A DNA stretch of 64,000 bases from an uncultured Planctomycetia bacterium (GTDB lineage Bacteria > Omnitrophota > Gorgyraeia > Duberdicusellales > 4484-171). Under the pieces are notes generated by a model, which was not told where the DNA came from, did not search any database, and was given only the letters and a program-made list of their open reading frames with translations. The stretch is taken from contig CAYVYZ010000002.1 of assembly GCA_964455875.1 (NCBI GenBank), positions 655-64,654 on the forward strand, read 5' to 3'. Every line of letters begins with the position of its first letter. Positions within the stretch are counted from its first letter, which is position 1. Below are positions 16,612 to 29,711 of the stretch, one piece after another. A program made the position numbers and the translations under genes.

Positions 16612-16884
16612 TTACTTCTTTATTATTTCCTTCCAATTAGTTATTTTATCAGGAATATGGAGGAAGTGTTTCTTTAAAAATTTTTTATTCATAAACCAAT
16701 GCCCCGCCCCATTTTTATCATCATCTAAAACAACATCGTATAGTTCTTCCCCATATCGTATAAGAAAAAATGTTTTTTTCAGGTATTCCTCTATATCTTT
16801 CTCTGGGAACTCCCAATTACTTTTGTCCGTGCTTTTATTTAGTTTGAAACGCATACCTACTTTTAGTTTTTTTGGGAAAGACAT
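16612..16884 (-). CDS. NWK-tail family small protein (member 1)
   Basis: Ends in ...KITNWKEIIKK. Confidence 0.5.
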   Translation of the reverse strand: MSFPKKLKVGMRFKLNKSTDKSNWEFPEKDIEEYLKKTFFLIRYGEELYDVVLDDDKNGAGHWFMNKKFLKKHFLHIPDKITNWKEIIKK

Positions 16885-16952
16885 AAGACCACCTTTTCTG
16901 ATGAAAATAGTAGCAAGGAGCTACACCCCAGTGGGAGTGTATATCCTTGCTT

Positions 16953-17165
16953 TTACTGGTTTTGTCCTCTTTTGGATAAATCATAACGGAGTTCATACTC
17001 CCATTGGCAGAGTTTCCTATCAATAATATCTTCTATCTCATTAATAGCGTCCCCAACACTATCATATTTATCCTCATACCCATAATCACTTGCCTTTTTA
17101 TTAATCTCTATCATCCTCTTAACAAAATTGGTTATGTTAAGGGAGATATTTTTAATTTCTTCCAT
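16953..17165 (-). CDS. hypothetical protein
   Basis: 70 aa. Confidence 0.3.
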   Translation of the reverse strand: MEEIKNISLNITNFVKRMIEINKKASDYGYEDKYDSVGDAINEIEDIIDRKLCQWEYELRYDLSKRGQNQ

Positions 17166-17457
17166 TTTTTAACACCTGCTTCCAATTAGTAATAATGTTT
17201 TTTAGTTTAAGCCTACCACTTCTAACATAATACTTTCCTCCTTTAAATTCGTATTTTGGAACAGGTTCAAGTGGTTTGTTTTTATTACTCCTCCACATGA
17301 TAAATTCCACAAAATACCATTTCTCACCGGGGTTAATTTTAGGTAAATTACGACCGCCTATTCCTATAATTTTACCATAAGACCCTGTTTGAATACCACA
17401 AAGTTTTTCATCCTTACATACTTCAACCATATCACCTATTTTGAATTCTCCACACAT
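17152..17457 (-). CDS. NWK-tail family small protein (member 2)
   Basis: Has the FKIGDMVEV element and ends in ...ITNWKQVLKNGRN. Confidence 0.5.
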   Translation of the reverse strand: MCGEFKIGDMVEVCKDEKLCGIQTGSYGKIIGIGGRNLPKINPGEKWYFVEFIMWRSNKNKPLEPVPKYEFKGGKYYVRSGRLKLKNIITNWKQVLKNGRN

Positions 17458-17564
17458 AATATCACCTTTTAAAGAAGCTATGGTAGGCGAAGAAGTCTTC
17501 TTCGCCTACCAAAAAGCTCCAGAGGGGTTTTACAGGTTTAAGTTTTTAATTCCTCGCTATTTAA

Positions 17565-17909
17565 TCATCTACCTAATATGTTTTTCCAATTATCAATCCT
17601 TTCTATTAACTGATAAATATGTTTAACCCCATCATACCAAACATTTTTTCTTGGATCCCAACCTATATGCCAGGTGTTTCCATATCCAGGAACAGAAAGA
17701 CCTGCTCCATTTTCACCATCATCTCTTAAAACATTAGCAACATTCCCAGAAACACTATGAATTTTACCTGTAAAGCCTATTTTTAGTATTGTGCCATCCG
17801 AACTCACACTACAACCGCACACTCTCATCCCAGGACAAAGTTCTGTTATTTTTTTAATCGGTAATAACTCTCTTCCCTTAAATATTATTTTCTTTCTTTT
17901 TTGTAACAT
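17565..17909 (-). CDS. NWK-tail family small protein (member 3)
   Basis: Ends in ...IDNWKNILGR. The start was trimmed. Confidence 0.45.
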   Translation of the reverse strand: MLQKRKKIIFKGRELLPIKKITELCPGMRVCGCSVSSDGTILKIGFTGKIHSVSGNVANVLRDDGENGAGLSVPGYGNTWHIGWDPRKNVWYDGVKHIYQLIERIDNWKNILGR

Positions 17910-18780
17910 TTTCCTCCTCTCTTTTCTTAATAAAAACTTCAAGGCGTTGCTTACGCAAACTTTCTTCCCATTTTTCCTTCCCACTACAAATATCGGTATA
18001 AGAACACCACCGGCAACGACTACCCTCGTGCTTTGGGTAGTCGTTTAAAACCGTAGAACGAGTTTTATTATATACACCCAGAATGGTATTTCGGGCATAC
18101 ATAAGGAGCGATGGTGTTACCTCCACCAAATATTCCTCACCATACCTAAGGAAAATAACCCCCGCAAAATCAGGGGTTCTTTGGTTTTGGCTTTGGTATA
18201 GAAGGGAGTAGATAGCTAATTGCCTCTTATACTCCTCTGGTAAACCTATACCATACTTGGAACTTGTTTTGTAATCGCCTATAGTGAGTATACCGTTAAA
18301 ATCCTCTGAAACCCTATCAATAAAACCACAACATTTAAGTTTCTCGTCCTTTACATATAATTCTCTGAATTTAGGACGCAACAAGAACCAAGCGTGGGCA
18401 GAATTCTCTGCTTTTTCTGCCTGAATAAGAGCATCAACTTTACGCCTAAAACTAATAAGATATTCATTTAACATAAAAAGTATGTCGGAACGAAAAATGG
18501 ATAATTTGTCCTCTGCCAGCTCTAAATCCTTTATGTTTTGCTCATTATTATTCCACGCCTTCTCAAAACATTCCTTCATATGTTCTGCCATATCCTTCTT
18601 ATGATACTTAAAAAAGTATTCAAGCGCCTCATGAACAACACCCCCTTTTATTAAATGAATGTTTGGCTTAACCTTGATTTTAGCAATATAGGAATAAAAA
18701 TAGTTTCGTGGGCAACTAAGATAGGTGTTTATACTACTTGGGCTCAGAATTTTTTGCGGTTCAAGAATATTTGAACTCAT
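17878..18780 (-). CDS. Cas4/RecB-like PD-(D/E)xK exonuclease with a 4Fe-4S cysteine cluster
   Basis: SCPRNYFY at the N-terminus, then GFIDRV...IGDYKTS and QLAIYSLLY, with CRWCSYTDIC at the C-terminus. Confidence 0.65.
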   Translation of the reverse strand: MSSNILEPQKILSPSSINTYLSCPRNYFYSYIAKIKVKPNIHLIKGGVVHEALEYFFKYHKKDMAEHMKECFEKAWNNNEQNIKDLELAEDKLSIFRSDILFMLNEYLISFRRKVDALIQAEKAENSAHAWFLLRPKFRELYVKDEKLKCCGFIDRVSEDFNGILTIGDYKTSSKYGIGLPEEYKRQLAIYSLLYQSQNQRTPDFAGVIFLRYGEEYLVEVTPSLLMYARNTILGVYNKTRSTVLNDYPKHEGSRCRWCSYTDICSGKEKWEESLRKQRLEVFIKKREEENVTKKKENNI

Positions 18781-18815
18781 GGTTTCCCTTATTTCTTTTA
18801 ATTCAGATATTTTAA

Positions 18816-19127
18816 TCAGTCCCCCTTAATAACCTTTTTCCAATTACGGACAGGTTTTTTATTTTCTAACATCAGCCTTCTTTCGGTATTAGCCACTATA
18901 TTTTCATATTCCTCCTCAGAATAATTAATAACATTCTCCCCACAGTTGCCGCAATAAACATCATCTCCAAATTCGCCACTCTCACCGTCGTGATAATCTA
19001 TTTCACCGTAATCCACAACCTCACCTTCTTTATCAATATAAACTTCTTGTGTTCCGTAAGAAGTAACATCCTGTGTGGTTGTAAAGTTTTCTGCTTCTCC
19101 ACACTCCTCACAATAATACGGCATCAT
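18816..19127 (-). CDS. NWK-tail family protein (member 4) with an N-terminal zinc ribbon and an acidic middle
   Basis: CEECG...CGNCG, ending in ...VRNWKKVIKGD. Confidence 0.45.
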   Translation of the reverse strand: MMPYYCEECGEAENFTTTQDVTSYGTQEVYIDKEGEVVDYGEIDYHDGESGEFGDDVYCGNCGENVINYSEEEYENIVANTERRLMLENKKPVRNWKKVIKGD

Positions 19128-19920
19128 TACCACCTCCAAAAATAGAGCCTTCCACAACAGGTTCTTTTTCTAAATCGTATGATGTTTTCCTAATTTTAAC
19201 ATTTATAATATCATTAGCAGGAGCTTCTGTATTGCCTATATAAGTCTTAACATAATCTTTTCCTTTAATATAATTAACTATATTACTGACTATTTTCCCA
19301 GCGAGTTCATTATTTACTGGGGCACAAGCTTTCTCTCCACAGGCTAATTCAGTTACCTTTCCGTGTGTAAGTGATTTCTCATATTCTTCAACTTCCTTTT
19401 TTTCTCGGCAATCAATAAGATAGTGTCGCATATTGAACATTCCAATCCTACCATCAACCCAGATAATGGGATAATCTTTTAACTTATCAAACAACATTTT
19501 CCTTGCTTCAAAGGAATCAAAGAAACAACAATATATCGTGTCCGGTAAAGGAATGACTTCTGTTTCTTCATTTATTTCCTCGTTAATAGTTATAATGTTT
19601 GTTAATCCTGCTTCATTTTTTAAAATCTCAGCCATCGCCTCAACTTTAGGCATACCAATTTGTTGAAAATTGTATGCCTGTGGCGAAATGTTCTCACTAC
19701 TGACTTTATCCCTATCTATTAATTCAATATTTTTGAACCCTGTCTTTGCTAATATCCTTGCGACGTGGGAACCAACACTTCCAACACCGAAAACTTTAAT
19801 AGTGTATTGATTAATCTTATCAGGTATTAGTTTTGCCTGCCTGCTTAAATCAAGCTCATTTACCTCTTCTTCTTTTTCTTCTTCTTGCTTTTCTCCTTCT
19901 TTTTCGTTTTTTTCCTCCAT
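19108..19920 (-). CDS. E1-like adenylyltransferase (ThiF/MoeB/UbaA family)
   Basis: IKVFGVGSVGSHVARILAKTGFKNIELIDRDKVSSENISPQ is a Rossmann fold with the DxDxV..SNL.RQ-like element. A Cys pair, ACGEKAC, lies downstream. The poly-Glu N-terminus overlaps the upstream gene. Confidence 0.65.
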   Translation of the reverse strand: MEEKNEKEGEKQEEEKEEEVNELDLSRQAKLIPDKINQYTIKVFGVGSVGSHVARILAKTGFKNIELIDRDKVSSENISPQAYNFQQIGMPKVEAMAEILKNEAGLTNIITINEEINEETEVIPLPDTIYCCFFDSFEARKMLFDKLKDYPIIWVDGRIGMFNMRHYLIDCREKKEVEEYEKSLTHGKVTELACGEKACAPVNNELAGKIVSNIVNYIKGKDYVKTYIGNTEAPANDIINVKIRKTSYDLEKEPVVEGSIFGGGNDAVLL

Positions 19921-21458
19921 TTTTTCCCCTCCTTTTTAGTTTTACTCGTATCTGTCCTTGCTATAGATTTTGCGGAAAAATTATTTTTTTCTTCTGGTAA
20001 CCCATTATCATTAACTCCTGTTAAATCCATTAAGGTTTGTTCTTGGTATTCATCAATAATCCTATCCACTATTTTAGCAATATGAACTCCGAATACTTCA
20101 AGGCTATGCCAAGTTGGGTCAAGCATAAGACTTCCTAAAATGTGGTTTTCATTATCATAAACCGAAGCAACCTCACAATCTGGCGCCGCCTCGCTCCAAA
20201 CAACTTTTAAGTCCCTGTTAATTTCTAATTGATTAATAATGGTATCAACTAATTCGGGCTCATCATACACCACTATTTTATCCCCCTCCTTGTTTTGTTC
20301 AATAAATCCTCTTTTTGGTTGTTCCGTATTAACTTCCTGAATTAATTGTTGTAAGTTTTTATCACCGTAATCCCCGTTTTCTTCTTCTATTTTCTCTAAA
20401 TCACACCACTCCTTTAATAGGAGTTTATTATAATTAATGAATAATTGGAGGAGTTTCTTTCTAAATTTATTAAAACTTTTCGGCGCAGGCTGTAATTTAA
20501 ACACGGTTCTCGCACCATCCTTAAAAGTTAATTCTGTTGGGTTTGGCCTAACAACATCTCCAAGGAAATTATTAGGACGAATAGCGTTCTTTAATATTTG
20601 TTTGAAATCTTGCCCTGTTTTAACCACACAACCGCCGTGTTTAAACTCCATACTTACCTGCTCGTTCTCAGCAGGAGAGAATTCAAAACCGTAGCTGGTT
20701 TTTATAAGGTTATTATCTACATAGAGCCGTTGGTCTTTTCTTTCCTCTTCAACATTCCCAAAAAGTTTTTTAAGGGCCTCAACATCGCTTTCCAAAATCA
20801 CTTTCTCACTCCTATTATAATTATAGTTATAATTATAGTTATTGCCTCCGTGATAATAGGTGTGAGTATAAGGGAGAGCTTTACCGTAGTCAAACACCCC
20901 CCGAGAAACCGGTCTCTCAACAACACATTTTTTCTTTATTGCCTCACATATCCTTGCTAACTCTTTATCTTCTGGGGAACACTCATAAAATATGTTTATT
21001 CTTTCGTTTAGGATTGTAACTCTTATTGGGTTACGAATATCAATTCTTACCTCTTTCTTCATCTCTCCATTATCCCAAGCAGTTTGTAAGAAGATAAAGT
21101 AAGGACGCTTTGCGTCGGCATCCATAAAAGTATCAAAGGTTTCATCTTCATCGGTAGAAGAACAACTTGGGCTACCCCCTGGGTGACGGTGCCAATAAAA
21201 GTTTATTTTACCCAATTCTTTCGTTGGAACTTCCTGTATAATATTCTTCCACATCTCTCCTGTGAAATGAACCGTTGCTCCGGTAACATATTGTTTGGGA
21301 TAATAAAGCTTATCAACATAAAAATATTTATTTCCGTCAACGGTTCTAATTCTGACGGTGCCAACAGCCCCTATCTCTGTGTCTAAATGTTCGGTAAACC
21401 ACTTTATTTGCCTATGGACATTATAGGCTAACATTACATTTGCCTTAAACTCTGACAT
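19860..21458 (-). CDS. JAMM/MPN+ metalloprotease domain fused to a ~360-aa domain of unknown function
   Basis: TEIGAVGTV...YWHRHPGGSPSCSSTDED matches E...HxHx7Sx2D. An NYNYNYNYN linker follows, and the C-terminus is a poly-Lys tail. Confidence 0.65.
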   Translation of the reverse strand: MSEFKANVMLAYNVHRQIKWFTEHLDTEIGAVGTVRIRTVDGNKYFYVDKLYYPKQYVTGATVHFTGEMWKNIIQEVPTKELGKINFYWHRHPGGSPSCSSTDEDETFDTFMDADAKRPYFIFLQTAWDNGEMKKEVRIDIRNPIRVTILNERINIFYECSPEDKELARICEAIKKKCVVERPVSRGVFDYGKALPYTHTYYHGGNNYNYNYNYNRSEKVILESDVEALKKLFGNVEEERKDQRLYVDNNLIKTSYGFEFSPAENEQVSMEFKHGGCVVKTGQDFKQILKNAIRPNNFLGDVVRPNPTELTFKDGARTVFKLQPAPKSFNKFRKKLLQLFINYNKLLLKEWCDLEKIEEENGDYGDKNLQQLIQEVNTEQPKRGFIEQNKEGDKIVVYDEPELVDTIINQLEINRDLKVVWSEAAPDCEVASVYDNENHILGSLMLDPTWHSLEVFGVHIAKIVDRIIDEYQEQTLMDLTGVNDNGLPEEKNNFSAKSIARTDTSKTKKEGKKWRKKTKKKEKSKKKKKKKR

Positions 21459-21477
21459 TTTTTTCCCTCCGAGTGTT

Positions 21478-23049
21478 TTAAAACACTTTCATTCCTTTAA
21501 ATTTCTTAATATTAATGTTATAATCATCCGCTTTCATAAGCTTTCTTTGTTCGCCTGTTTTAATCCTATCTTTATCATTAATCATTATTCTGTTTCCTTT
21601 CTCATCCCAAATCGGATAACCGTGTTGTAACCTGTTATCATAAAAATCCCATATCTTAACATAAGCGCCTTCATTTCTATATGTTTTAATCCAAAACCAT
21701 AATAAGGTGGCTAAATCAACAAACTTATTAAAGGATAAACATTCATAAATCTTATTCCTCCCATCACCACTACCAAAGCAAGGAGTGCCACCATGGGAGT
21801 CAGCATGTGGGTGGGGATGTCCATCAATATCGGTTTCTCCCTTAACTTTGAAACCATCGGGGGTTATGACAATTTCTATCCAACCCAAGTAACAAATTCT
21901 CTTACCAAGCTTCTTCCCCATATCGCTCCTTTTGAAATTTGGTATTGTTATGGTAGCAGGCTTAAATTTAATACATATACCGTCGTATTGTAAATCAATT
22001 TCATCAACAAACGGTAATTTTTTCACCTTATTAACCTCATTAAATATGGTTTTGCCAGAGGTATTAATAGTATTGGATATAAATATTTTCTCCTGCTCTA
22101 AACGATTTAACCTATCAAATAACAGCCTAATATTATTTTCGTTACTTGAAATATCTCTTGTTATCCTTTTTTTATCCTGTTTTATTTCTTCTAACTTCTC
22201 CCTTGCTCTCTTTAAGAACCCAGAAATAAAAATCTTTTTTTGTAAGGTAGTAATATTGGTTTTGACAGGTTTAAGAGATTTTAAGACGGCAAACAAATCT
22301 TTTAATGGTTTTGATATTTCTGTTTGAAGGGGAAGAATTTTTCTTATTAAGAAAGGATTATAATATAGTCTTATCAGGTTTCTTTCTTTAAAATATCTTC
22401 CTATGAGAATATTGTTTCCTATCTTAATATCAATTATTTTTTCTCCTTCAAAAGGACTAATGAAGGGAGCTTCATAAACAACTTTAAATTCTTCTTTGTT
22501 AGGTATATCAGTTACATCCCCATATTTATTATACAACAAATCGTTCATCCTTGTATAGAATCCTGGTGGAACTTCCTTTTTAATTCTACCATCAACCCCG
22601 GTATCAAAGACAAGGGTAATCTTTTTATTAATAGTAGCATTTCTTTTAAGGTTAAAAATAGAAGTTACTACCTCAATACCAAGCTCCTTGAACTTTTTAT
22701 CTAAAAGCTTTAATATGAGGGGGTTTCCATCAAGTCCATTAAATTTCTCTTTATAATCAAACATATTTTTAAAGACGGTTTTAGAAACATCTTCGGGCCT
22801 CAGGCTCTTCATAGTTTTTACCTTTTTAATCAACCTATCAATTAATTTAATGGCTTCTCTTCCCTCATAATTAATTTCTTTATCATTCATCCTAATTTTT
22901 CCAAGTAATTCTTTGCCTTTTGTAAACTGAAAGGTTTCATTATCAAGCCATTTTTCCTTGCCTTTTTTTCCTAACTTATTCACCACAATCCTTAAAATAT
23001 TTTCTATTAAATAAGGGTTATCATCCTTAAATTTTTTCACTTTACTCAT
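21478..23049 (-). CDS. hypothetical large protein
   Basis: 523 aa. The only notable element is DGHPHPHADSHGGTPCFGSGDG. Confidence 0.45.
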   Translation of the reverse strand: MSKVKKFKDDNPYLIENILRIVVNKLGKKGKEKWLDNETFQFTKGKELLGKIRMNDKEINYEGREAIKLIDRLIKKVKTMKSLRPEDVSKTVFKNMFDYKEKFNGLDGNPLILKLLDKKFKELGIEVVTSIFNLKRNATINKKITLVFDTGVDGRIKKEVPPGFYTRMNDLLYNKYGDVTDIPNKEEFKVVYEAPFISPFEGEKIIDIKIGNNILIGRYFKERNLIRLYYNPFLIRKILPLQTEISKPLKDLFAVLKSLKPVKTNITTLQKKIFISGFLKRAREKLEEIKQDKKRITRDISSNENNIRLLFDRLNRLEQEKIFISNTINTSGKTIFNEVNKVKKLPFVDEIDLQYDGICIKFKPATITIPNFKRSDMGKKLGKRICYLGWIEIVITPDGFKVKGETDIDGHPHPHADSHGGTPCFGSGDGRNKIYECLSFNKFVDLATLLWFWIKTYRNEGAYVKIWDFYDNRLQHGYPIWDEKGNRIMINDKDRIKTGEQRKLMKADDYNINIKKFKGMKVF

Positions 23050-23117
23050 AATATCCCCTCCTTCTTTTTTTATAGGAGTATTTGAACATAAAAAAAAAAT
23101 AAAAAAGAGTTTTCGGC

Positions 23118-23495
23118 TTAAGCTGACTTAATCTCGGGTGAGATTATGTAAGTTTCGCCGTTAACAACCTCCGAAGAAAGTCTTACCGTTTCTCCTGTTG
23201 ATTTTGCGGTCACTGATTCCTTGCTGTCGTCAAATGTGTAACCTGATTGCTCAATAAGTTCCTCAACAGTAGCTCCTTCTGGCAACAAACAGGTTTCAAC
23301 GCCATTTACACCGATTCTTCCTATAGACGCTTCAATAGCGCCTTCTATTGGCCTACTCCTTCTCCTGCTGGTTGTTGTTCCAGAACCTTGTGCGTTATAG
23401 GCTCTGGTTATTGCTGCCTTTTGTCCGGGCAACAAGTCGTCAAAATCCTCGCCATACATTCTGTTGGCAAGGGCGTTCTTTGACATCCTTGGCAT
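23118..23495 (-). CDS. hypothetical protein with a possible C-terminal beta-grasp (ThiS/MoaD-like) segment
   Basis: ...EGATVEELIEQSGYTFDD...GETVRLSSEVVNGETYIISPEIKSA. There is no terminal Gly-Gly. The gene is locally GC-rich. Confidence 0.3.
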   Translation of the reverse strand: MPRMSKNALANRMYGEDFDDLLPGQKAAITRAYNAQGSGTTTSRRRSRPIEGAIEASIGRIGVNGVETCLLPEGATVEELIEQSGYTFDDSKESVTAKSTGETVRLSSEVVNGETYIISPEIKSA

Positions 23496-23555
23496 ATTAC
23501 CACCTCCAAGTTTTTTATGCCGTTGTTAAATCCCTACAACTCTTAGGGATAAACA

Positions 23556-24233
23556 TTATTTACGAATTTTAAGGACATCATATATTCCAAAAAACATACC
23601 ATTATACATCCTTCCGTAAGGAATTCTAACTAAAGCATAACCATTATTCCAAGCAACCTGCTGAATGTAAGACTCAATTTCGTAAAGGTCTTGATGAGTA
23701 TAAGCTACTTTCGTGCCTTTTCTATAACAGAATGTAAAGGCTAAAACACTATCATTAGCAGGAAGCTTATAATCAAAATATTTTTTAATATCCGACTTTG
23801 GATTAACCTCGCTATTCCCCTTAATAGAACAACAATAATCAAACCAAATACCGCCACACTTATTTTTCCCCTCTTTTTTAATCATATCAAAATAATCGCC
23901 TAACCACATATCGTATGTAGCATTATGATATTTTTTAATCTTATCAAAGGCGTTGGTAGGGTTTGGAACCTCCACTCTCTTAATACCATACTTTTTTAAT
24001 GTTTTAAGGGTTAATAGGGCTTCGCTTTCAAGCACTACAAAGAATTCTTTTCCCTTGTTTCTTAATTTAAAGGCTTCGGCAACTCTTTTATTGTTCTCTT
24101 TTTTTATTGGGTTTTTTGAAAGCTTCCTATCATATTTTTCTCTTTTTCTTTTCATCTTCGCCCCCTTATTTATCCAAAACCATTTTTTACCCATAATATC
24201 CCTCTTAATATGGTTTAATCTGTTTTTATTCAC
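23556..24233 (-). CDS. hypothetical protein
   Basis: 225 aa with a basic N-terminus. Confidence 0.4.
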   Translation of the reverse strand: MNKNRLNHIKRDIMGKKWFWINKGAKMKRKREKYDRKLSKNPIKKENNKRVAEAFKLRNKGKEFFVVLESEALLTLKTLKKYGIKRVEVPNPTNAFDKIKKYHNATYDMWLGDYFDMIKKEGKNKCGGIWFDYCCSIKGNSEVNPKSDIKKYFDYKLPANDSVLAFTFCYRKGTKVAYTHQDLYEIESYIQQVAWNNGYALVRIPYGRMYNGMFFGIYDVLKIRK

Positions 24234-24276
24234 TCTTGAATAGTAGTATTTATAAAGATTATGTTTTTAAATGGGA

Positions 24277-24510
24277 CTACACCTTAATCCTCTTTTTCCA
24301 ATTCTTTATTGGTGGCTCGTGCCTTCTTGCTATCATTTCGCCTGTAATAACATAACCGGCGTCAATATTATAGTAACGGTTAGTGGTAGTTGGTATTATA
24401 CCTGTAATAATAACTTTCTTTCCCGCAAGATTTTCGGAAATGTTTTTCTCTCTTAACTTTTTTTTGTTCTTTATTAATATCACTTCATCATATATTCTTA
24501 TATTACTCAT
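24277..24510 (-). CDS. NWK-tail family small protein (member 5)
   Basis: Ends in ...PPIKNWKKRIKV. Confidence 0.45.
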   Translation of the reverse strand: MSNIRIYDEVILIKNKKKLREKNISENLAGKKVIITGIIPTTTNRYYNIDAGYVITGEMIARRHEPPIKNWKKRIKV

Positions 24511-24538
24511 CTTCCTAAACTCCTCCTATTTTTTTTCA

Positions 24539-25162
24539 TTATAAGCCTTCCATTTTAAGTATTCTGCTTTTTTGACCTGAATGTTTATGAAATCCTTGTG
24601 GTATCTTAACAAGGTTACCATACTTTCTTCCCTCGTTCAACTCTGTTTGTTTTGGGAAAACCTCGTGATAACCAAGCCCAACCCTATTTAACCGTGATTT
24701 AACAAGCTTCTGCCCAAACGAAGCTTGAACAGGATTTTTAAAGAATATCCATATATGATAGCCACGCCTACCACTAAATTCAAGTATTCTGGGAAAATCT
24801 TCAAAAAGGTCAAAGATGATGTTGGCTTCTGCCTTGACCCGGCGTAATTCTGCCTCTTCTTCTTTGAACCCACATTTTGGACAAACCCATTTCCAATCCT
24901 TTTCATCAATATAAACTCCTTTATCACGGCACTTCTTACATTTCTTCTTAATATCAATATCAATACAAGCCCACTTAATAGTGTTGTCGTGATTAAGGCA
25001 GTATAGTCCATAAGTTTCTTTTCCTGACATATGATTTTCAATATCCTCAAGAGTTATTGGCCTTCTTTCTGGATAATAATAGCCACCGGGCTGTTGTTTA
25101 GCAAAAACATCTTTCCTATGAACAAAAATGTTAAATATTTCTTCTGCGGATAGCTTTATCAT
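24539..25162 (-). CDS. archaeo-eukaryotic primase-type primase-polymerase (PrimPol-like) with an inserted zinc ribbon
   Basis: CIDIDIKK (DxD), CKKCRD...CPKCG, GRRGYHIWIFF (sGxGyH) and LVKIP. Confidence 0.6.
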   Translation of the reverse strand: MIKLSAEEIFNIFVHRKDVFAKQQPGGYYYPERRPITLEDIENHMSGKETYGLYCLNHDNTIKWACIDIDIKKKCKKCRDKGVYIDEKDWKWVCPKCGFKEEEAELRRVKAEANIIFDLFEDFPRILEFSGRRGYHIWIFFKNPVQASFGQKLVKSRLNRVGLGYHEVFPKQTELNEGRKYGNLVKIPQGFHKHSGQKSRILKMEGL

Positions 25163-25401
25163 CTGTTTAACACCTCTCTCCAATTAATTTTGGCAGGAAT
25201 AAAATGCTTTGGGTCTTCAACAAAATCCCGTATCCAACCACCTTTTAAATCTCCTTCTATTTCTGGAAAATAATATAAAAAACCGTCGTGTTGAACCGTA
25301 TAAATTTTATCCTTAATAAAAAATTTGGAGGCTATACTATTTCCTGGATTAACACATTTCAGTTTTGTGCCTTCTTTATACTTGTGTTTTGGTTTCCACA
25401 T
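25159..25401 (-). CDS. NWK-tail family small protein (member 6)
   Basis: Ends in ...AKINWREVLNR. Confidence 0.45.
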   Translation of the reverse strand: MWKPKHKYKEGTKLKCVNPGNSIASKFFIKDKIYTVQHDGFLYYFPEIEGDLKGGWIRDFVEDPKHFIPAKINWREVLNR

Positions 25402-25469
25402 CTTTTAAACCCCATCAATTTTTTATAATATTTCTCTCCTATGTTTTTTTTGATTATATTCCTTTTTTA

Positions 25470-26234
25470 TCAATTCTTAAAAATGTTTGTTGCCCCCTCT
25501 TTTAGTAAATCTTCATAAGGGATAATTCTTCTTAACCGTGGTTGAAATGGTTTTTTATCAGGTGTTAAAAAACAATATTCTATTTCCGCATACGGTTTTT
25601 TATTAAGGAATTTTAAATAATTAAAAAATTCAACCAATTTTATTGAATTAGCCGAACACTTTACTTTAATACCGTTTCTACTTAACAAAAAAGCTCCTTT
25701 ACTCTTCCCTTTAATATGGGTTATTATGGGGAGTTTTTCTTCAATAAGCCTTTTACACTTATACATTACTTTACTATTCATATCTTTTAATACTAATCCT
25801 TCAGTATTGTTTTTAAGGACAAAATTCCACCCCTCCTCAAAAGTCTTAAATCTTTTAGGATAAGATAAGTGTTTAAACCCCTTTATTATTTCCTCTATTT
25901 TCATTCTTTTAGTCATAACATCTGCTTCCCTAAAATTTTTTCCTTCAAATTCTAAAATATCAAAGATATAATATTTTGTCCTCCCCCAATTAATTTTTTT
26001 ATTTAATAATAAAACATTCCCCCAAGGGATAGCGATTTCTCCTATAAAAAACCCATTAAGATTTTTTAATTCTTTTAATATGTGAGGAAACTTATGATTT
26101 TGATTAATCCACCTCTTATCAGATAACAACACTCCTTTATTGTAATAAACACACCCGCCATCAACTTTTTCCTCAATAAGGAAATTTTTTAATTTCTTTG
26201 CTTCCTCAACACCAATTTGTAATATTCCTGACAT
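25470..26234 (-). CDS. ATP-dependent DNA ligase, minimal type
   Basis: EEKVDGG (the KxDG motif), FIGEIA, YIFDIL, EGLVLKD and a lysine-rich motif V. Confidence 0.7.
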   Translation of the reverse strand: MSGILQIGVEEAKKLKNFLIEEKVDGGCVYYNKGVLLSDKRWINQNHKFPHILKELKNLNGFFIGEIAIPWGNVLLLNKKINWGRTKYYIFDILEFEGKNFREADVMTKRMKIEEIIKGFKHLSYPKRFKTFEEGWNFVLKNNTEGLVLKDMNSKVMYKCKRLIEEKLPIITHIKGKSKGAFLLSRNGIKVKCSANSIKLVEFFNYLKFLNKKPYAEIEYCFLTPDKKPFQPRLRRIIPYEDLLKEGATNIFKN

Positions 26235-26238
26235 CTTT

Positions 26239-26649
26239 TCATCTCATAAACTCAATAAACTTTTTACCTGAAATCTTTGCTCCCCATACAGGAGGGATTT
26301 CAAGCCTTTCTTTTATCAAATCATAAGATAGTCCTTCATCAACCATAGCCCTAATCCCAGGTAAAAAATAATTATTATAAAAATCTTCTCCTAATTTTTC
26401 AATAATTTTATTATAACTCCTATAACTAATAGTTTTTTTCTTTTTTCTTTCGGCACATCTTTTAAGATTAGAATAGGAAAAACCACCACCTCCACCTTTC
26501 CTCTTATGTTTCTTTGCTATTGCTCCCATAACAGCTATTAAATATCCGTATTCTTTGGCTTGGTTTTCATCTATTCCTTTTTTAATTGCCTGACAATAAT
26601 TATAGACGGCAAAAATGTCAAATTTTCCTATTAAAACATCCTCAAACAT
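26239..26649 (-). CDS. hypothetical protein
   Basis: 136 aa. Confidence 0.35.
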   Translation of the reverse strand: MFEDVLIGKFDIFAVYNYCQAIKKGIDENQAKEYGYLIAVMGAIAKKHKRKGGGGGFSYSNLKRCAERKKKKTISYRSYNKIIEKLGEDFYNNYFLPGIRAMVDEGLSYDLIKERLEIPPVWGAKISGKKFIEFMR

Positions 26650-26941
26650 TTTTTATCCTCCTCATTTTTTTATTTAATTTTTTTCCGATATCTCCCAACC
26701 CCTTGTCAATTTTGAGTATTTCTCTACCAAAACGGGTAACGGTCACCTTATCATCATAAAAATTTATTTCGGTGTTTTCAGCCTCAATATTTCTTTCGCA
26801 CTCTTCCCTATCAATACAATAATATTCCCCCAGTATTAATTGAAGGTTTGTTCGTGTAGAACCGTCCTCTTCCATAATAATTACTTCCCTACCATTACAA
26901 TTCTTACACCTCTTATTTGGGTTAGTAAAAATTTTAACCAT
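26642..26941 (-). CDS. hypothetical zinc-binding protein
   Basis: CKNCNG...C..REEC. Confidence 0.35.
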   Translation of the reverse strand: MVKIFTNPNKRCKNCNGREVIIMEEDGSTRTNLQLILGEYYCIDREECERNIEAENTEINFYDDKVTVTRFGREILKIDKGLGDIGKKLNKKMRRIKNV

Positions 26942-27080
26942 TTATATCACCTCGTTGCCAAGCCTTAAGTTCTTTTATTATTTCCTCAAAGCTAACAGGA
27001 CGAAAATCCCAAACATCAACCCCAACATTTTATAATATTCTCGTGCCCAAAATGATAATCCGAGGTAAACCAATACCTTT

Positions 27081-27698
27081 TTAGTCCTCAAAACTGAATT
27101 CTTTTTCCTTATCAAAACTGAATTCTTCTTCGCCTCCAATAATGAATAAGTCGTTGAAGGCAACATCTTTCCCATAACAAACATCAGCAAGGGATTTAAG
27201 AGTTTCCTCTTTCTGTTTCAGCTTTTTCTCATACTCTATCCCTTTATGAGTAACAAAATTGATTAACCTCATAACATCGTCCTCGTAAATATGTCCTTTA
27301 TAACTAATTCTACCAAGGCGACATACTAAACAACTAACAACCGTGTATTTCCCCTCTGCTGTTTTAAAAGGTTTTGACTCAACCCATATATGTCCCGGAC
27401 ATTCTTTCAGTTCTCTCATCAACTGCCTTTTAAAGTCAAGTTCGTCGGCATCCATTTTCTTTTCCACCTCCAACAAATCCTTTTTAATCTGTTCGTATAA
27501 TGGATTAGTATAGGGCTTTCTCTTAATAATGTATTTGGAAAGACAAACATTACAAATATAGTCCTTGTCTTTTGGAGAATAGGGGTCTTCCATCACAGGT
27601 TTCTCATCTTTCCAAATATCGCCGTTCTTACAACTATCACAATATTCCTCTTGTTCGTGTTTTGGTTTAACTAATCCGTTAATATGGTGTTTTATCAT
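27081..27698 (-). CDS. hypothetical Cys-rich protein with a C-terminal EFSF repeat
   Basis: CDSC...CNVC...CLVC, with the tail ...EEEFSFDKEKEFSFED. Confidence 0.45.
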   Translation of the reverse strand: MIKHHINGLVKPKHEQEEYCDSCKNGDIWKDEKPVMEDPYSPKDKDYICNVCLSKYIIKRKPYTNPLYEQIKKDLLEVEKKMDADELDFKRQLMRELKECPGHIWVESKPFKTAEGKYTVVSCLVCRLGRISYKGHIYEDDVMRLINFVTHKGIEYEKKLKQKEETLKSLADVCYGKDVAFNDLFIIGGEEEFSFDKEKEFSFED

Positions 27699-27901
27699 TT
27701 TGATATCCCTTTTATTATTGTTGTGTCTAAATACCTAAGGTTATAACCTTGTTTTACTAACCTCTTTTCTTCTTTCTTTATTTCTTTTACCAAGGCATTA
27801 ATCTTTTTCTTCCTTTCTTCTATACCCGCAGAAAGATAATAGGCATCCCTTATCATTCTACCGAGTTCTTCAAACGAACTATCATCCACTAAATTTTTCA
27901 T
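27695..27901 (-). CDS. hypothetical protein
   Basis: 68 aa. Confidence 0.3.
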   Translation of the reverse strand: MKNLVDDSSFEELGRMIRDAYYLSAGIEERKKKINALVKEIKKEEKRLVKQGYNLRYLDTTIIKGISK

Positions 27902-28259
27902 TTTTTAACACCTCCTATTACAAATTATAGCCCTTTCACATAACGGGCGAACATAACAAATATGTTTACCGTCTATTCTCTTTGATAAATCCTGTTTTTT
28001 AAACCATTTATTATAGGGTTATCAAAATATTTTTTTTATTCCTTCTTTTTCTTGTTCTTCTTCAGTTAAACTATTTATTAATTTTTCTGGGTTCCATAAC
28101 CACTCGTCCATTTTTACACCTCTCATTAAAGCTTTTTGCGGTGGTAAACTCACCATAAAAAGACTTTTTATTACCTATAAGTATAATTCTTTCTTCCTCA
28201 TCACATCTTTTAGCAATACTGCCTAATCTTTTCCTATCTTCATCTACCATTCTTTTCCC

Positions 28260-28553
28260 TCATAACAACTTATAGGTTTTCATAATCTTCCTTCTTAACT
28301 CATCGGTTAGTTTCCCTTTTATTTGTAAAGGTAACATAGCTAAAAAGGCAGCATAAATATTGGGAGCGTCAGGATTATACTTCATTTTTTCGGCAAGCTC
28401 AGGAAAAGCTTCTTGGTGTTTCTTAATAATGTAATGCCTCATCTTAACATCACAATAAAAAACTCCTTTAGCACTTGTCCTTGCCTTCTGATGCTCAAGC
28501 CCAAGCGGAGCTTGGTGTGGAAGCCCGGTATCTGGGTCTATTTGTTCATTCAT
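28260..28553 (-). CDS. hypothetical protein
   Basis: 97 aa. Confidence 0.35.
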   Translation of the reverse strand: MNEQIDPDTGLPHQAPLGLEHQKARTSAKGVFYCDVKMRHYIIKKHQEAFPELAEKMKYNPDAPNIYAAFLAMLPLQIKGKLTDELRRKIMKTYKLL

Positions 28554-28592
28554 TTTTTCTTATCCTCCATTTTCAGATTTCTATACGGGATA

Positions 28593-28874
28593 TTATTTTT
28601 TTAACACCTCTCTCCAATTAATTTTAATGTTATGTAATTTTAAGCATCCTTCCCAAAAAGTTTCTCTTTTAAAAACACCTCCAATTTGGAGCTCCTCCAT
28701 ATATTCAAAGTTATCTCTATGACGGAATTTTGATTTTGAGTTTTCCAAGGTTTTTAAAAAATATCCTGACTCTCCGGCACTGATTACTTCTAATATTAAT
28801 CCTTCTACATCACCACTAACTCCTCTTACTATATCACCTACTTTAAAGGTCATTTTCCAAGCACCTTCTTCCAA
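28593..28874 (-). CDS. NWK-tail family small protein (member 7)
   Basis: Has the FKVGDIVRG element and ends in ...IKINWREVLKK. Its 3' DNA is identical over 26 nt to that of member 6. Confidence 0.5.
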   Translation of the reverse strand: MEEGAWKMTFKVGDIVRGVSGDVEGLILEVISAGESGYFLKTLENSKSKFRHRDNFEYMEELQIGGVFKRETFWEGCLKLHNIKINWREVLKK

Positions 28875-29215
28875 TTAATTTGTTCCCTCTCAACCAATTC
28901 CACATCATCAGGATTAACAATACACCAACCTACCATATCCTTACCTTGAGAATATCCGACAGGCAAACTTCTCTTTTCCCTTCTTTCTTTTTCACCAAGA
29001 ATCCCATGTTTAGGAATTGTTAAATTATGAAATCTTTGTCCCCAAGCCAGAACGGTTAATACGCCATTACCTATACAATCCTTACACTTCATTCCATTCG
29101 CGGCGTCACAACCGCTCTTATCGCCTGTAATAATTACCTTGTCTCCGGGTTTAAACTTCATCAACTTCCACCTCGTGTTTGAAATGATATACAGGATAAA
29201 CCGTATCGTCCTCAA
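28850..29215 (-). CDS. NWK-tail family small protein (member 8)
   Basis: Has the FKPGDKVIITGD element and ends in ...QINWKKVLGK. Confidence 0.45.
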   Translation of the reverse strand: MRTIRFILYIISNTRWKLMKFKPGDKVIITGDKSGCDAANGMKCKDCIGNGVLTVLAWGQRFHNLTIPKHGILGEKERREKRSLPVGYSQGKDMVGWCIVNPDDVELVEREQINWKKVLGK

Positions 29216-29396
29216 ATAAGATTTCTTCTGGCACCCAGTTCTCAGCCTCCATCTTGGACTTTTCTAACGCCTCTATCAACCTTTCTTCTTCTCTTACACC
29301 GTAGCAATAAAGTTGGCGTAATACCTCGTCTGGGCTAACATTTTTCTCATATAATTCCCTAAGTTTATCCACCCAGGGCAGAGTTAATTTACTCAT
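29151..29396 (-). CDS. hypothetical acidic protein
   Basis: 81 aa. Confidence 0.35.
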   Translation of the reverse strand: MSKLTLPWVDKLRELYEKNVSPDEVLRQLYCYGVREEERLIEALEKSKMEAENWVPEEILFEDDTVYPVYHFKHEVEVDEV

Positions 29397-29414
29397 TTTA
29401 ACACCTCCATTTTT

Positions 29415-29711
29415 TCAGGGTTTTTTCAAAATAACCTTCCAATTAGTTATTCTAATTCCAACACCTTTCTTAATTATTTTAACAATTACATTGGCATCAT
29501 CGGTAGTAACATAAGAGCTGCCTAATGTATTTCGGCTTTCTTTGTGTTTTTTTATTGCTCCTTCCGGTGTAGGAGCCCATTCTCCCCATAACTCATTCTC
29601 TCCCCTTATACTTTTTATAATACAATAAGCTCTGAAATCCTTATCATTAACATATTTATCATTAACAAATTTCCATCCTATTAAATCTCCAACCGCAAAC
29701 ACCACTTTCAT
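29415..29711 (-). CDS. NWK-tail family small protein (member 9)
   Basis: Ends in ...RITNWKVILKKP. Its 3' DNA (ttccaattagttatt) is identical to that of member 1. Confidence 0.5.
   Translation of the reverse strand: MKVVFAVGDLIGWKFVNDKYVNDKDFRAYCIIKSIRGENELWGEWAPTPEGAIKKHKESRNTLGSSYVTTDDANVIVKIIKKGVGIRITNWKVILKKP

Follow-up and report, generated by a model that had tools for sequence, protein, structure and literature searches.

Nine small genes that share a C-terminal tail

Nine small genes lie on the minus strand of the 64-kb stretch of viral DNA analysed here (hereafter the window), and all nine end in [IV]-x-N-W-[KR]-x-x-[IL], 6-9 residues before the stop. The preliminary description had reported this tail, and our analysis confirms that the observation is real and larger than first reported. 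All nine ORFs exist, although the low coordinates given for them correspond to their stop codons, and their tails are NWKEIIKK, NWKQVLKNGRN, NWKNILGR, NWKKVIKGD, NWKKRIKV, NWREVLNR, NWREVLKK, NWKKVLGK and NWKVILKKP. Of 15 NW[KR] tripeptides in all six-frame ORFs of at least 30 aa in the window, nine sit 8-11 residues from the C-terminus of these ORFs. Among the 11 occurrences in real genes, 9 fall in the last ~6% of residues (binomial P of about 3e-10). Furthermore, NW, WR, SW and WK are the four most enriched dipeptides in the last 12 residues of genes in the window and five relatives, at 5-11 fold.

The first of these genes (16612-16884, 90 aa) ends in DKITNWKEIIKK, encoded at 16612-16644. 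Its orthologue in L001, one of the related virus loci (designated by L numbers throughout), keeps the tail as KITNWKQIIKR, and the ATG of the next gene is 37 nt after the TGG, so that this tail is not the Shine-Dalgarno (SD) site. The second (17152-17457, 101 aa, protein P0001) has an N-terminal FKIGDMV element and ends in IITNWKQVLKNGRN (17152-17193); its body homologue L132_4592 carries the flavour of its own genome, NNWREEMKN. Here the downstream ATG lies inside the tail, and CAG-GTG at +2/+3 (positions counted from the W) forms an AGGTG SD. The third (17565-17909, 114 aa from the called start, with the longest ORF running to 17984) ends in ERIDNWKNILGR (17565-17597) and is followed by about 100 nt of intergenic DNA, so no downstream gene is coupled to it. 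The fourth (18816-19127, 103 aa, P0127) is a double zinc-ribbon and acidic protein with the tail PVRNWKKVIKGD (18816-18851). In all 8 full-length orthologues of this protein the body is conserved, the linker varies in length and sequence, and the tail is kept. An AlphaFold2 model (mean pLDDT 80) shows a beta body at residues 1-68, a helix at 71-88 and a short helix at 96-100 (WKKVI), predicted at a pLDDT of only 54-59 and detached from the body.

The fifth gene (24277-24510, 77 aa; tail PPIKNWKKRIKV at 24277-24309) lies directly downstream of the AEP primase-polymerase gene. The sixth (25159-25401, 80 aa) ends in AKINWREVLNR (25159-25191) and has a body homologue, L129_2290, that ends in INWKKRIQD; it overlaps the primase gene by ATGA, and GAG-GTG at +2/+3 serves as its SD. 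The seventh (28593-28853, 86 aa from the ATG of MTFKVGD) ends in IKINWREVLKK (28593-28625) and shares 26 identical nt with the tail of the sixth, although their bodies are unrelated. The eighth (28850-29161, 103 aa from the ATG of MKFKPGD; tail EQINWKKVLGK at 28850-28882) overlaps the start of the seventh by ATGA. Finally, the ninth (29415-29711, 98 aa; tail IRITNWKVILKKP at 29415-29450) is followed by a gene that has its own separate GGAGGTG SD.

Some details of the preliminary description had to be corrected. The lengths of 77-139 aa use the longest possible start, and likely true lengths for the third, fourth, seventh and eighth proteins are those given above. The shared DNA core AATTGGARR is only mildly over-represented (13 matches against 6.9 expected); the signal is frame plus position and not a DNA repeat, and the 26 nt shared by the sixth and seventh tails are the one long DNA identity. 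The claim that the bodies are unrelated is mostly right. However, the proteins at 17152, 17565, 28593 and 28850 share a weak N-terminal FKxGDxV element.

The tail is found across a clade of tailed viruses

To assess how widespread the tail is, we looked for it in related genomes, and recovered 162 W-type tails on small ORFs in 15 genome groups of a clade of tailed viruses, probably of DPANN archaea. In these viruses, a fifth to nearly half of the small genes near the replication module end in the tag, and the richest genomes have 11-29 tagged ORFs per roughly 20 kb. Indeed, L214 has 16-29 tagged ORFs, depending on the filter and on whether L241, from the same contig, is pooled; L128 has 11 in 21 kb, and L231 has 19 of 49 ORFs. 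One lineage, L216, has replaced NW[KR] with KTLMDLKI on the same body families, its zinc-ribbon and SH3-like bodies among them, and carries this alternative tail on 19 of 42 ORFs. In contrast, about 1.1 Mb of cellular DPANN loci gave only 9 isolated, unrelated matches. We found no published description of such a tag.

The preliminary description had named in advance an outcome that would overturn it, namely that the tail belongs to one known domain family with homologous bodies. This is not what we observed. BLAST clustering of 178 tagged proteins yielded 84 body clusters, 63 of them singletons, and the bodies include zinc ribbons, a PARP-type zinc finger and three proteins with transmembrane helices. 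About half of them (86 of 178) start with a [K]FK[VI]GDxV-like, SH3-like strand, and the largest cluster has 36 members.

Selection acts on the peptide and not on the DNA

The other outcome named beforehand as fatal, conservation restricted to the DNA with no synonymous change, was not borne out either. Ser at -1 is encoded by AGT/AGC and by TCT/TCG, Thr at -2 by ACT/ACA/ACG/ACC, Arg at +1 by AGA/AGG/CGG and Arg at +3 by AGG/AGA/CGA/CGG. Codon identity at identical residues is at or near random expectation: 53% observed against 51% expected in L214, 49% against 55% in L215 and 48% against 41% in L216. The window and L128 show a modest excess of shared codons (66% against 48% and 58% against 48%), and some recent duplication or exchange therefore occurs, but recurrent recombination at the 3′ DNA, which had been proposed as a possibility, is not supported. 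Part of the +2/+3 flavour is nevertheless dual coding, since all three translationally coupled tails in the window have NAG-GTG, an AGGTG SD, at those codons, and tagged genes are coupled to a downstream ATG more often than untagged small ORFs (73% against 48%).

Tails are homogeneous within a genome and differ between genomes

We next compared tails within and between genomes. Within-genome similarity exceeds between-genome similarity both upstream of the W (7.36 against 2.36) and downstream of it (10.33 against 6.24), with permutation p at or below 5e-4. A tail is also closer to the tails of non-homologous neighbours (19.2) than to that of its own body homologue in another genome (8.3), and this holds in 87% of 53 comparisons (Wilcoxon p 1.5e-8). 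The tag, which the preliminary description saw in a single genome, is clade-wide and evolves in concert within each genome. Tail net charge ranges from +2.2 to -1.75 between genomes, which argues against membrane or nucleic acid as the target and for a protein surface that changes in step.

Candidate receptors encoded by the virus

Two candidate receptors were identified in the window, although no binding partner was demonstrated for the tag and neither candidate was tested. The first is a virus-encoded PCNA sliding clamp (4547-5302, minus strand). A phmmer search against PDB matched it to 1rwz at 1.2e-5, and a profile of five orthologues matched 3p91 at 1.9e-10 and 1rwz at 7.5e-9 over nearly the full length. 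It is the fastest-evolving replication protein, only 34-40% identical between relatives, while RFC is 51-59%, RadA 71-75% and RNR about 69% identical. An RFC-like clamp loader is also encoded (3577-4488, minus strand; Pfam AAA plus RCF1-5-like lid; phrog_168 'clamp loader' at 4e-58). However, the tag lacks two defining features of the PIP box, as it has no Gln and position 8 is K/R rather than aromatic, and the usual clamp clients encoded here (ligase, primase-polymerase and nuclease) do not carry it. No PCNA was found on the L214 and L216 contigs by a pattern search, an absence that such a search leaves undecided.

The second candidate is a conserved four-gene block (19108-23495, minus strand) that comprises a beta-grasp-like 125-aa protein (23118-23495), an unknown 523-aa protein (21478-23049), a 532-aa protein with an N-terminal JAB/MPN motif (19860-21458) and a ThiF/E1 (19108-19920; PF00899 at 6e-26). 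The E..HxH..S..D residues are invariant in eight JAB orthologues. The block is present, and syntenic, in every related locus that covers the region, including the KTLMDLKI lineage, and tagged genes flank it on both sides. An E2-like HPH..C motif in the 523-aa protein has no statistical support (hhalign probability 0.14%), and this protein had no Pfam or PDB hit. A scan for charge covariation was confounded by phylogeny and singled out no receptor.

Alternative explanations

Taken together, the interpretation given in the preliminary description is partly supported: its general reading of a shared targeting or docking tag, and in particular of a binding motif for a common hub, is the one that the evidence favours, while its specific candidates fare less well. 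Among these, a degron is the least doubtful. The tag is C-terminal, short, exposed and present on many unrelated proteins, as ssrA or MuA-type tags are, K/R follows W in most tails, and it could mark early accessory proteins for timed destruction by the host proteasome with PAN or Cdc48, by host Lon, or by the ClpP-family protease of the virus (36545-37168; PF00574, 5e-31). A trypsin-like peptidase is also encoded (10501-11277), but it is absent from the relatives. Nevertheless, no Clp-type unfoldase was found among the larger ORFs of the window that were scanned, in which the clamp loader is the only AAA+ protein found, and the acidic flavours in relatives do not resemble Clp degrons. Moreover, host proteolytic machinery is conserved, so that fast drift between genomes, including charge inversion and the switch to KTLMDLKI, is unexpected for a host-read degron. 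Capsid cargo loading is unlikely. In this view the tag would bind the inside of the HK97-type capsid, the scaffold or the portal, so that the small proteins are delivered with the DNA, and the architecture of a short terminal peptide, a flexible linker and diverse cargo co-evolving with the shell does match in a tailed virus with a terminase and a portal. Yet tagged genes sit among the primase, ligase, nuclease and Ubl genes rather than in the structural block at 49.9-64 kb, where no gene carries the tag, ten to thirty different cargo proteins would be unprecedented, and three tagged proteins have transmembrane helices.

It is similarly unlikely that the tail acts as a nascent peptide in the ribosome exit tunnel, slowing termination so that the ribosome re-initiates on the overlapping downstream gene. 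Selection on amino acids, a distance to the stop that is short and fixed in some genomes (W+5 in L214 and W+4 in L231), the frequent coupling described above (against an untagged baseline that includes spurious ORFs) and the ATGA overlap in 61 of 143 tagged genes would fit. On the other hand, 27% of tagged genes have no coupled downstream gene, including genes at the end of an operon and 5-6 of the 9 in the window, the distance from W to the stop varies from 6 to 11 codons across the first 38 tails, and the exit tunnel is a conserved host structure, which fits poorly with genome-specific flavours and the W-to-M replacement. About as unlikely is that the tail is the conserved C-terminal helix of a single divergent fold, an SH3-like barrel plus helix expanded by tandem duplication. 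Despite the shared SH3-like strand, the tandem arrangement of many tagged genes and weak pairwise body similarities in the window, the same tail occurs on the zinc-ribbon and acidic family behind a linker of variable length, on a PARP-type zinc finger, on transmembrane proteins and on many singletons, and orthologous bodies carry different tails in different genomes. Conservation at the DNA or RNA level (an SD or translation-initiation region, promoter, terminator or recombination joint) is already largely refuted. In 3-4 of the 9 window tails the downstream SD and start codon do lie inside the tail, the tail DNA AATTGGAGAGAGGTGTTAAA resembles an intergenic ribosome-binding site, AAAATGGAGGTGTTAAAATG, and one pair shares the 26 nt mentioned above. 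But synonymous sites are randomised, Ser, Thr and Arg are kept through codon-family switches, all tails are in one reading frame, AATTGGARR is only mildly over-represented, and in L130 and L215 the SD is made by later GG codons while the W-K motif lies upstream.

Comparison with known systems

PIP-box and other clamp-binding peptides (of archaeal and eukaryotic PCNA clients, and the C-terminal clamp-binding tails of phage T4 gp43, gp33 and gp55) are likewise short, often at the extreme C-terminus behind a flexible linker, form about one helical turn with a hydrophobic-x-x-aromatic spacing (here I-x-x-W), and are shared by many unrelated proteins that dock on one hub. Besides the PIP-box features that it lacks, the tag differs in having an extra conserved hydrophobic residue at +4 and acidic flavours in some genomes, and in being carried by 10-30 small proteins of unknown function. 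Encapsulin cargo-loading peptides, bacterial microcompartment encapsulation peptides and the capsid-targeting sequence of T4 internal proteins are also short terminal peptides that are joined by a poorly conserved linker to functionally diverse proteins of one genome and co-vary with their receptor shell. Here, however, the tagged genes are in the replication and accessory module and not next to shell genes, the sequence is unrelated to the Gly/Leu-rich cargo-loading consensus, membrane proteins are among the tagged, and the number of tagged proteins is far larger.

In poxvirus ANK/PRANC proteins, and in F-box, SOCS-box and H-box substrate adaptors, many paralogous or unrelated target-binding bodies of one viral genome end in the same C-terminal docking element, which plugs into a single ubiquitin-type machine, and in our case a Ubl/JAB/E1 module lies in the middle of the tagged genes. 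Those elements are folded domains of 40-50 aa that dock on host Skp1 or Elongin, not 9-residue peptides, and no link between the tag and the Ubl module has been shown. Lastly, C-terminal tails are recognised by E1-like enzymes (the Ubl-GG tail, and the CD-NTase tail used by Cap2/Cap3 in type II CBASS), and an E1 (ThiF) and a JAB peptidase are encoded here together with proteins that share a defined, disordered C-terminal tail. The tails described here do not end in Gly or Ala and carry extensions of variable length, and adenylation or conjugation is pure conjecture.

A putative address tag

Our data establish that the tag exists, that it is selected as a peptide, that it is modular, occurring on different bodies behind variable linkers, that it evolves in concert within genomes and that its charge varies; that it is a helix binding a protein groove, and that its receptor is virus-encoded, is inferred. 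The explanation that we favour, and that we hold to be only somewhat more likely than not, is that the tail is a short address tag of about nine residues, with consensus K-I-T-N-W-[RK]-x-x-[IL], appended at the extreme C-terminus of many otherwise unrelated small accessory proteins of this virus clade. It is most likely an N-capped one- to two-turn amphipathic helix that presents I(-3), W(0) and I/L(+4) on one face. As for the receptor, we consider the two viral candidates about equally likely, each only tentatively: the fast-evolving PCNA clamp, the classic hub for C-terminal peptides, and the beta-grasp/523-aa/JAB/ThiF-E1 module, around which the tagged genes are always clustered; E1 and JAB enzymes typically act on C-terminal tails. 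The remaining probability, which is the larger share, goes to a host protein or another viral protein. In this view, all tagged proteins of one genome would dock through the tag onto one and the same protein receptor, and tag and receptor would co-evolve, keeping the tag uniform within a genome while it drifts between genomes, in one lineage as far as K-T-L-M-D-L-K-I.

Gene content of the contig

The 64-kb window is most of a roughly 65-kb contig of a tailed virus, with no near match among deposited phage genomes. Genes run on the minus strand from about 49.4 kb down to 0, and on the plus strand from 49.9 kb onwards. Recognizable genes are those of a large terminase (37165-38820), a portal protein (49950-51431), a class II ribonucleotide reductase (RNR, 1316-3298), an archaeal-type RadA (6416-7357), a PD-(D/E)XK nuclease (17878-18780), an AEP primase-polymerase (24539-25183), a ThiF/E1 protein (19108-19920) and a ClpP-family protease (36545-37168), together with a faint match to an ATP-dependent ligase (25470-26234). 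No DNA polymerase other than the small AEP primase-polymerase was recognized among the ORFs scanned. A large sugar-modification cluster lies at 39013-48847 on the minus strand, upstream of the terminase and in the same orientation, and includes a methyltransferase fused to a DegT-type aminotransferase (42093-43970) and glycosyltransferases (46497-47564, 35434-36480). A cytidylyltransferase-like gene lies at 5274-5714.

A common tail on nine small proteins

To assess whether the shared C-terminal tail noticed in the preliminary description was real, we re-examined the nine minus-strand ORFs, here named by their lower coordinate. The observation held, since all nine end as had been written there. 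Of the 15 NW[KR] tripeptides found in all six-frame ORFs of at least 30 aa, nine lie 8-11 residues from the end of these ORFs and two others lie in other real genes. The chance of 9 of 11 falling in the last ~6% of residues is, by our arithmetic, about 3e-10. An unbiased count of dipeptides in the window plus five relatives placed NW, WR, SW and WK at the top of C-terminal enrichment, at 5-11 fold. As a DNA word, in contrast, the motif is unremarkable: AATTGGARR occurs 13 times against 6.9 expected, and one of the four extra copies is in another reading frame inside member 28593. The starts of four members had to be corrected, giving 17565-17909, 18816-19127, 28593-28853 and 28850-29161. None of the nine has a Pfam or PHROG family. 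A homologue search of 5.8 billion proteins with member 17152 found only the protein itself and one 82%-identical relative. The bodies are ORFans.

The tail is a property of a whole virus clade

To find out how widespread the tail is, we collected syntenic relatives from ENA, JGI, NCBI and IMG/VR (designated by L numbers), using as anchors the neighbouring nuclease, which alone has more than 120 homologues, a 523-aa protein of unknown function, RadA and PCNA. The 523-aa protein and PCNA found nothing in IMG/VR as single-protein queries, and alignment queries were needed. Almost every relative carries many small ORFs with the same kind of tail. L128 has 11 in 21 kb, with C-terminal ends such as KIKSWRELLK and KNWREYIE; L130 has 7, of the type [ND]WK[DES][KY][IL]..; L214 has 16-29, ending in KITNW[KR][EDQK]R[IL][IKR]; L215 has 10, of the type [IV]TNW[KR][KR]E[LIVM]..; L225 has 14, of the type [NS]W[KR]KRI..; L231 has 19 among 49 ORFs, which end in I[ND]WRxEL, exactly at +4 relative to the Trp; L229 has 7, ending in EI[ND]WQxEL[KE]; L228 has 4, of the type IT[ND]W[EQ]KE[IL]..; and L232 has 11, of the type LSWKE[KR]M... 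On the other hand, L217 has few tags. Pooling 15 genome groups gives 162 tails with the consensus K-I-T-N-W-[RK]-[EK]-[RE]-[IL].

Two other ways of finding relatives were of no use. A search of IMG/VR with a degenerate DNA pattern of the tail returned 120 hits that were mostly random, with short upstream ORFs. A profile of the last 30 residues, run against 1.84 billion representative proteins, gave only three hits passing E 0.001, which from their lengths (80, 77 and 103 aa) are most likely the window's own proteins, this profile being too short to reach further.

About 1.1 Mb of cellular loci fetched with the same nuclease profile yielded only nine isolated, dissimilar matches. Nearly all of these loci are Woesearchaeota or Nanoarchaeota MAGs, and the closest cellular homologues of the viral nuclease (31-48% identity; L133-L212) are almost all in Woesearchaeota, Nanoarchaeota or Micrarchaeota MAGs. 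Several records titled 'uncultured Methanosarcinales' sit among them and may be mislabelled bins, while L133, a 4.3-kb 'Micrarchaeota' contig, carries a tag-like tail, INNWNDILIK, and is probably viral. Together with the archaeal-type RadA, a PTH2 gene in L130 and TATA-like intergenic boxes, the cellular loci suggest a DPANN archaeal host, which is an inference and not a demonstration. In some relatives RNR and RadA are much longer than in the window and match the window proteins in separate pieces (L246 13015-16026; L247 11012-14950 and 4484-6232; L132 from 20073): RNR has 1003 and 1312 aa, against 660 aa in the window, and RadA has 582 aa and at least 668 aa, against 313 aa. The L132 RadA has weak intein and LAGLIDADG hits, and these are probably inteins.

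Selection acts on the peptide

The preliminary description had set as its main criterion for refutation that conservation might exist at the DNA level only, with no synonymous changes. We therefore examined codon usage within the tails, and the answer is that conservation is at the peptide level. Ser at -1 is encoded by AGT/AGC (4) and by TCT/TCG (4), Arg at +1 by AGA, AGG and CGG, and position +4 uses ATA, TTA, ATT, TTG, ATG and CTT. In L214 and L215, Thr at -2 uses all four ACN codons, and in L214 Arg at +3 uses AGG, AGA, CGA and CGG. Where two tails of one genome have the same residue, the frequency of using the same codon equals the expectation from codon usage, with 53% against 51% in L214, which has the most uniform tails, 49% against 55% in L215 and 48% against 41% in L216. 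There is a modest excess in the window (66% against 48%) and in L128 (58% against 48%). All tails share a single frame. Gene conversion, a DNA repeat, or a promoter, terminator or Shine-Dalgarno (SD) signal therefore cannot explain the conservation.

There is nevertheless a real dual-coding component. In the three window members whose stop overlaps the next start (17152, 25159 and 28850), codons +2/+3 read NAG-GTG, which is an AGGTG SD about 8 nt before the ATG. In L130 and L215 the SD is supplied by Gly-Gly codons further downstream, while W-K stays upstream. Tagged genes are coupled to a downstream ATG more often than other small ORFs (73% against 48%), although the untagged set includes spurious ORFs. 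Tails at operon ends, or followed by a separate SD, keep the full motif.

The tagged bodies are largely unrelated

It had also been anticipated that the tail might prove to be a feature of one domain family, so that the bodies would be homologous after all. Comparison of the regions upstream of the tail did not bear this out: the 178 tagged proteins fall into 84 BLAST clusters at E below 1e-3, of which 63 are singletons. About half do begin with a [K]FK[VI]GDxV-like strand, and many end their body with (D/E)LEL just before the tag, which suggests fast-diverging SH3-like barrels that multiplied in tandem. The SH3-like fold rests on the motif alone, since an AlphaFold2 model of member 17152, with the window's paralogues as its alignment, had an unusable mean pLDDT of 48. 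The same tag also sits on a double zinc-ribbon and acidic family (window member 18816), a PARP-type zinc-finger protein, three proteins with transmembrane helices, and many singletons.

In the zinc-ribbon family the body is conserved, the linker varies in length and sequence, and all eight full-length orthologues keep the tag. AlphaFold2 of the window member (mean pLDDT 80) predicts a beta body, a long helix, a loop, and then a five-residue helix, W-K-K-V-I, at pLDDT 54-59, which is the signature of a linear motif rather than of part of a fold. A Foldseek search of the PDB with this model (18816-19127) gave as best hit the anti-CRISPR AcrVIA2 (E 0.016, probability 0.96, 25-28% identity), but with a TM-score of only 0.24-0.35 and an rmsd of 9-10 Å. 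It is thus only a weak hint that tagged proteins could be anti-defence effectors.

A second recurrent C-terminal motif, acidic and aromatic, was seen on the minus strand of the window at 27081-27698, 30551-31240, 32470-32727 and 34148-34717, where the proteins end in EEEFSFDKEKEFSFED, GPSEFSFS, EPEFSFETEPEFSFEG and ETTFNFE. Possible counterparts in relatives end in EEDEELFGFL (L132), EEVEFL and RFIEFL (L221), and YLEVV, ILEVI and IMEVI (L227). This may be a second tag class for a different receptor, and it recalls the acidic C-terminal tips of single-stranded-DNA-binding proteins.

Tails evolve in concert within each genome

Our key new result is that tails are more alike within a genome than between genomes. 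This holds upstream of the Trp (BLOSUM sum 7.36 against 2.36), which is outside any SD influence, and also downstream (10.33 against 6.24), both with a permutation p at or below 5e-4. The number of residues after +4 is also genome-specific, being 0 in L231, 1 in L214, 2-3 in the window and about 4 in L130. For proteins whose bodies are homologous across genomes, the tail resembles the tails of non-homologous proteins of its own genome (19.2) far more than the tail of its homologue elsewhere (8.3). This was so in 87% of 53 comparisons, which are not independent (Wilcoxon p 1.5e-8).

The extreme case is a sister lineage, L216 (IMGVR_UViG_3300031952_000008) together with L237-L239. It has the same nuclease (43% identity) and the same Ubl/JAB/E1 block, described below, but no NW tails. 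Instead, 15-19 small ORFs end in [PK]K[TNS]LMDL[KVE][IVFL], including the zinc-ribbon orthologue (PKTLMSLEVKDDS) and SH3-type bodies. When the tails are aligned on Thr(-2) and Ile(+4), N-W-K has become L-M-D.

Net tail charge ranges from +2.2 (L214, L226) to -1.75 (L228). A constant anionic target such as membrane or nucleic acid is therefore unlikely, and we rejected both a membrane-targeting helix and a nucleic-acid-binding tail because several genomes have net-acidic tails. A protein surface that changes in step is the simplest explanation.

A proposed docking tag and its candidate receptors

The residue pattern is an N-cap residue (N, S, D or T), then W, then a basic residue, often E at the third helical position, and a hydrophobic residue at +4. 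With I at -3, this fits a one- to two-turn amphipathic helix that presents I, W and I/L on one face. While the conservation of the peptide, its presence on unrelated bodies and its concerted evolution come directly from the sequence comparisons, the helix is inferred from sequence and from the AlphaFold2 models, and we read the tail from there as a docking tag for one receptor per genome. The interpretation put forward in the preliminary description, a shared targeting or docking tag, is in this sense supported in part, although several of its specific candidates fit less well. Two virus-encoded receptors stand out as candidates, but the receptor is still open; no complex of either with a tail was modelled, and binding, including that to the groove under the PCNA interdomain connector loop, was not assayed.

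The first candidate is a viral PCNA. The 251-aa protein at 4547-5302 (minus strand) is divergent, without a Pfam hit and recognized only against PDB sequences, where it matches archaeal PCNA structures (1.2e-5 alone, and 1.9e-10 as a five-sequence profile, over nearly the full length). It lies next to an RFC-like clamp loader (3577-4488, minus strand). Clamps are the textbook hub for short C-terminal helical peptides, and T4 uses such tails on small proteins. This PCNA is also the fastest-evolving replication protein, with 34-40% identity between relatives against 51-75% for RFC, RadA, RNR and a 375-aa protein. On the other hand, the tag lacks two defining features of the PIP-box (PCNA-interacting peptide). 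No conserved Gln was apparent at -6, the equivalent of PIP position 1, in tails inspected by eye but not tabulated, whereas the tabulated -5 and -4 are mostly K, L and P. Position +1, the equivalent of PIP position 8, where a second aromatic or hydrophobic residue is expected, is R or K in 145 of 162 tails, the rest being Q, E, T or N. The tag does have the h-x-x-a spacing of an aliphatic residue at position 4 and an aromatic residue at position 7, with I or V at -3 in 103 of 162 tails and W at 0 in all 162 by construction of the search, M taking this position in the KTLMDLKI lineage. Moreover, the ligase, primase and nuclease lack the tag, membrane proteins carry it, and the PCNA gene lies 11-24 kb away from the tagged genes.

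The other candidate is a conserved ubiquitin-like four-gene block at 19108-23495 (minus strand). It comprises a 125-aa ThiS/MoaD-like beta-grasp protein, the unknown 523-aa protein with an invariant HPH..C, a 532-aa protein with an intact JAB motif, and ThiF/E1. The beta-grasp assignment concerns the C-terminal half of the 125-aa protein and rests on our reading of the sequence plus a weak SLBB hit; this protein ends in PEIKSA rather than GG. The block is present in every locus that covers the region, including the KTLMDLKI lineage, and tagged genes flank it on both sides. L235 has the block but no tag in 5 kb. E1 and JAB enzymes are readers of C-terminal tails by trade. There is, however, nothing direct in favour of this candidate, and the tails do not end in Gly. 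An E2-like reading of the 523-aa protein is not supported, since hhalign aligned its HPH..C to the HPN..C loop of UbcH5B at a probability of only 0.14%, and neither Pfam nor the PDB gave any support. Searches of PDB sequences with the JAB-containing, 375-aa and 225-aa proteins found nothing.

To discriminate between receptors, we scanned for charge covariation between tail position +3 and columns of seven conserved proteins. The strongest anticorrelated columns were in the primase, ThiF and the nuclease. However, the R-type and E-type genomes look like two clades, because charge at +3 correlates about as strongly with columns of unrelated proteins, and we rejected this confounded result as evidence.

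Alternative explanations

A degron, one of the candidates of the preliminary description, remains possible. A ClpP-family protease (PF00574, 5e-31) lies at 36545-37168 on the minus strand, between the large terminase and a glycosyltransferase and not next to the portal or capsid genes, which lie on the other strand, and it is unclear whether it is a prohead protease or a true Clp-type protease. No Clp-type unfoldase was found among the proteins scanned, and the rapid drift of the tag argues against a conserved host reader. Compared with the non-polar LAA-like or basic RRKKAI-like extreme C-terminus of Clp-type degrons (ssrA-like or MuA-like), the window's tails are basic and hydrophobic but those of L228, L229 and L231 are acidic, a mixed picture that decides neither for nor against a Clp degron. 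Processing of the tail by a trypsin-like peptidase cutting after W-K/R was rejected, because the peptidase in question (10501-11277, minus strand; PF13365, 1.8e-11) is absent from all relatives examined. A weak transglutaminase-like protein at 13835-14632 (minus strand) is conserved in L128 and L131.

Capsid loading had also been proposed, and the architecture of a short terminal peptide shared by diverse proteins behind a variable linker does fit an encapsulin-type cargo-loading peptide or a T4-type capsid-targeting sequence. However, all nine window genes lie at 16.6-29.7 kb among replication and Ubl genes and none in the structural block at 49.9-64 kb, and neither the number of tagged proteins nor the three with transmembrane helices fits this reading; presence in particles was not examined. 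A nascent-peptide role in termination and re-initiation would explain the peptide-level selection, the proximity to the stop and the coupling bias, but not the uncoupled members, the variable spacing or the genome-specific flavours. Descent from one fold family and a DNA signal are both contradicted by the data, the former by the variable linkers, the body clusters and the different tails on homologous bodies, and the latter by the randomized synonymous sites.

Discussion

Short terminal docking and targeting peptides are already known, and the tag works like a PIP-type hub motif, or like a cargo or encapsulation peptide, but by the features tested it belongs to neither. In the open-access literature searched, we found no description of a virus that puts one such peptide on 10-30 unrelated small proteins, keeps it uniform within each genome, and lets it drift between genomes to the point of full replacement. 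It is unusual in its breadth (a fifth to nearly half of the ORFs in the best-covered loci), in its concerted within-genome evolution across non-homologous proteins, and in its complete replacement in one lineage.

A more speculative reading, which is unlikely but not excluded, is that these viruses run their own protein-addressing system, in which a lineage-specific C-terminal 'zip code', written onto a fifth to nearly half of the accessory proteome, is read by a dedicated, co-evolving, virus-encoded reader. In its furthest version the reader is the beta-grasp/523-aa/JAB/ThiF-E1 module, which would process, adenylate or conjugate every tagged protein through its tail, as a viral counterpart of Cap2/Cap3 acting on the CD-NTase tail but with dozens of substrates, or would alternatively use the tagged proteins as interchangeable substrate adaptors.

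The tag is also a clean natural example of concerted evolution of a linear motif across non-homologous proteins. If the docking-tag reading is right, it offers a natural series of orthogonal tag and receptor pairs (NW[KR]-R type, NW[KR]-E type, WQxEL and KTLMDLKI) that could be used as tools, and a single experiment with a tail peptide would identify the hub through which a large share of the accessory proteome acts. It would also give a first functional handle on a large block of ORFan genes in viruses of DPANN archaea, where almost nothing is annotated.
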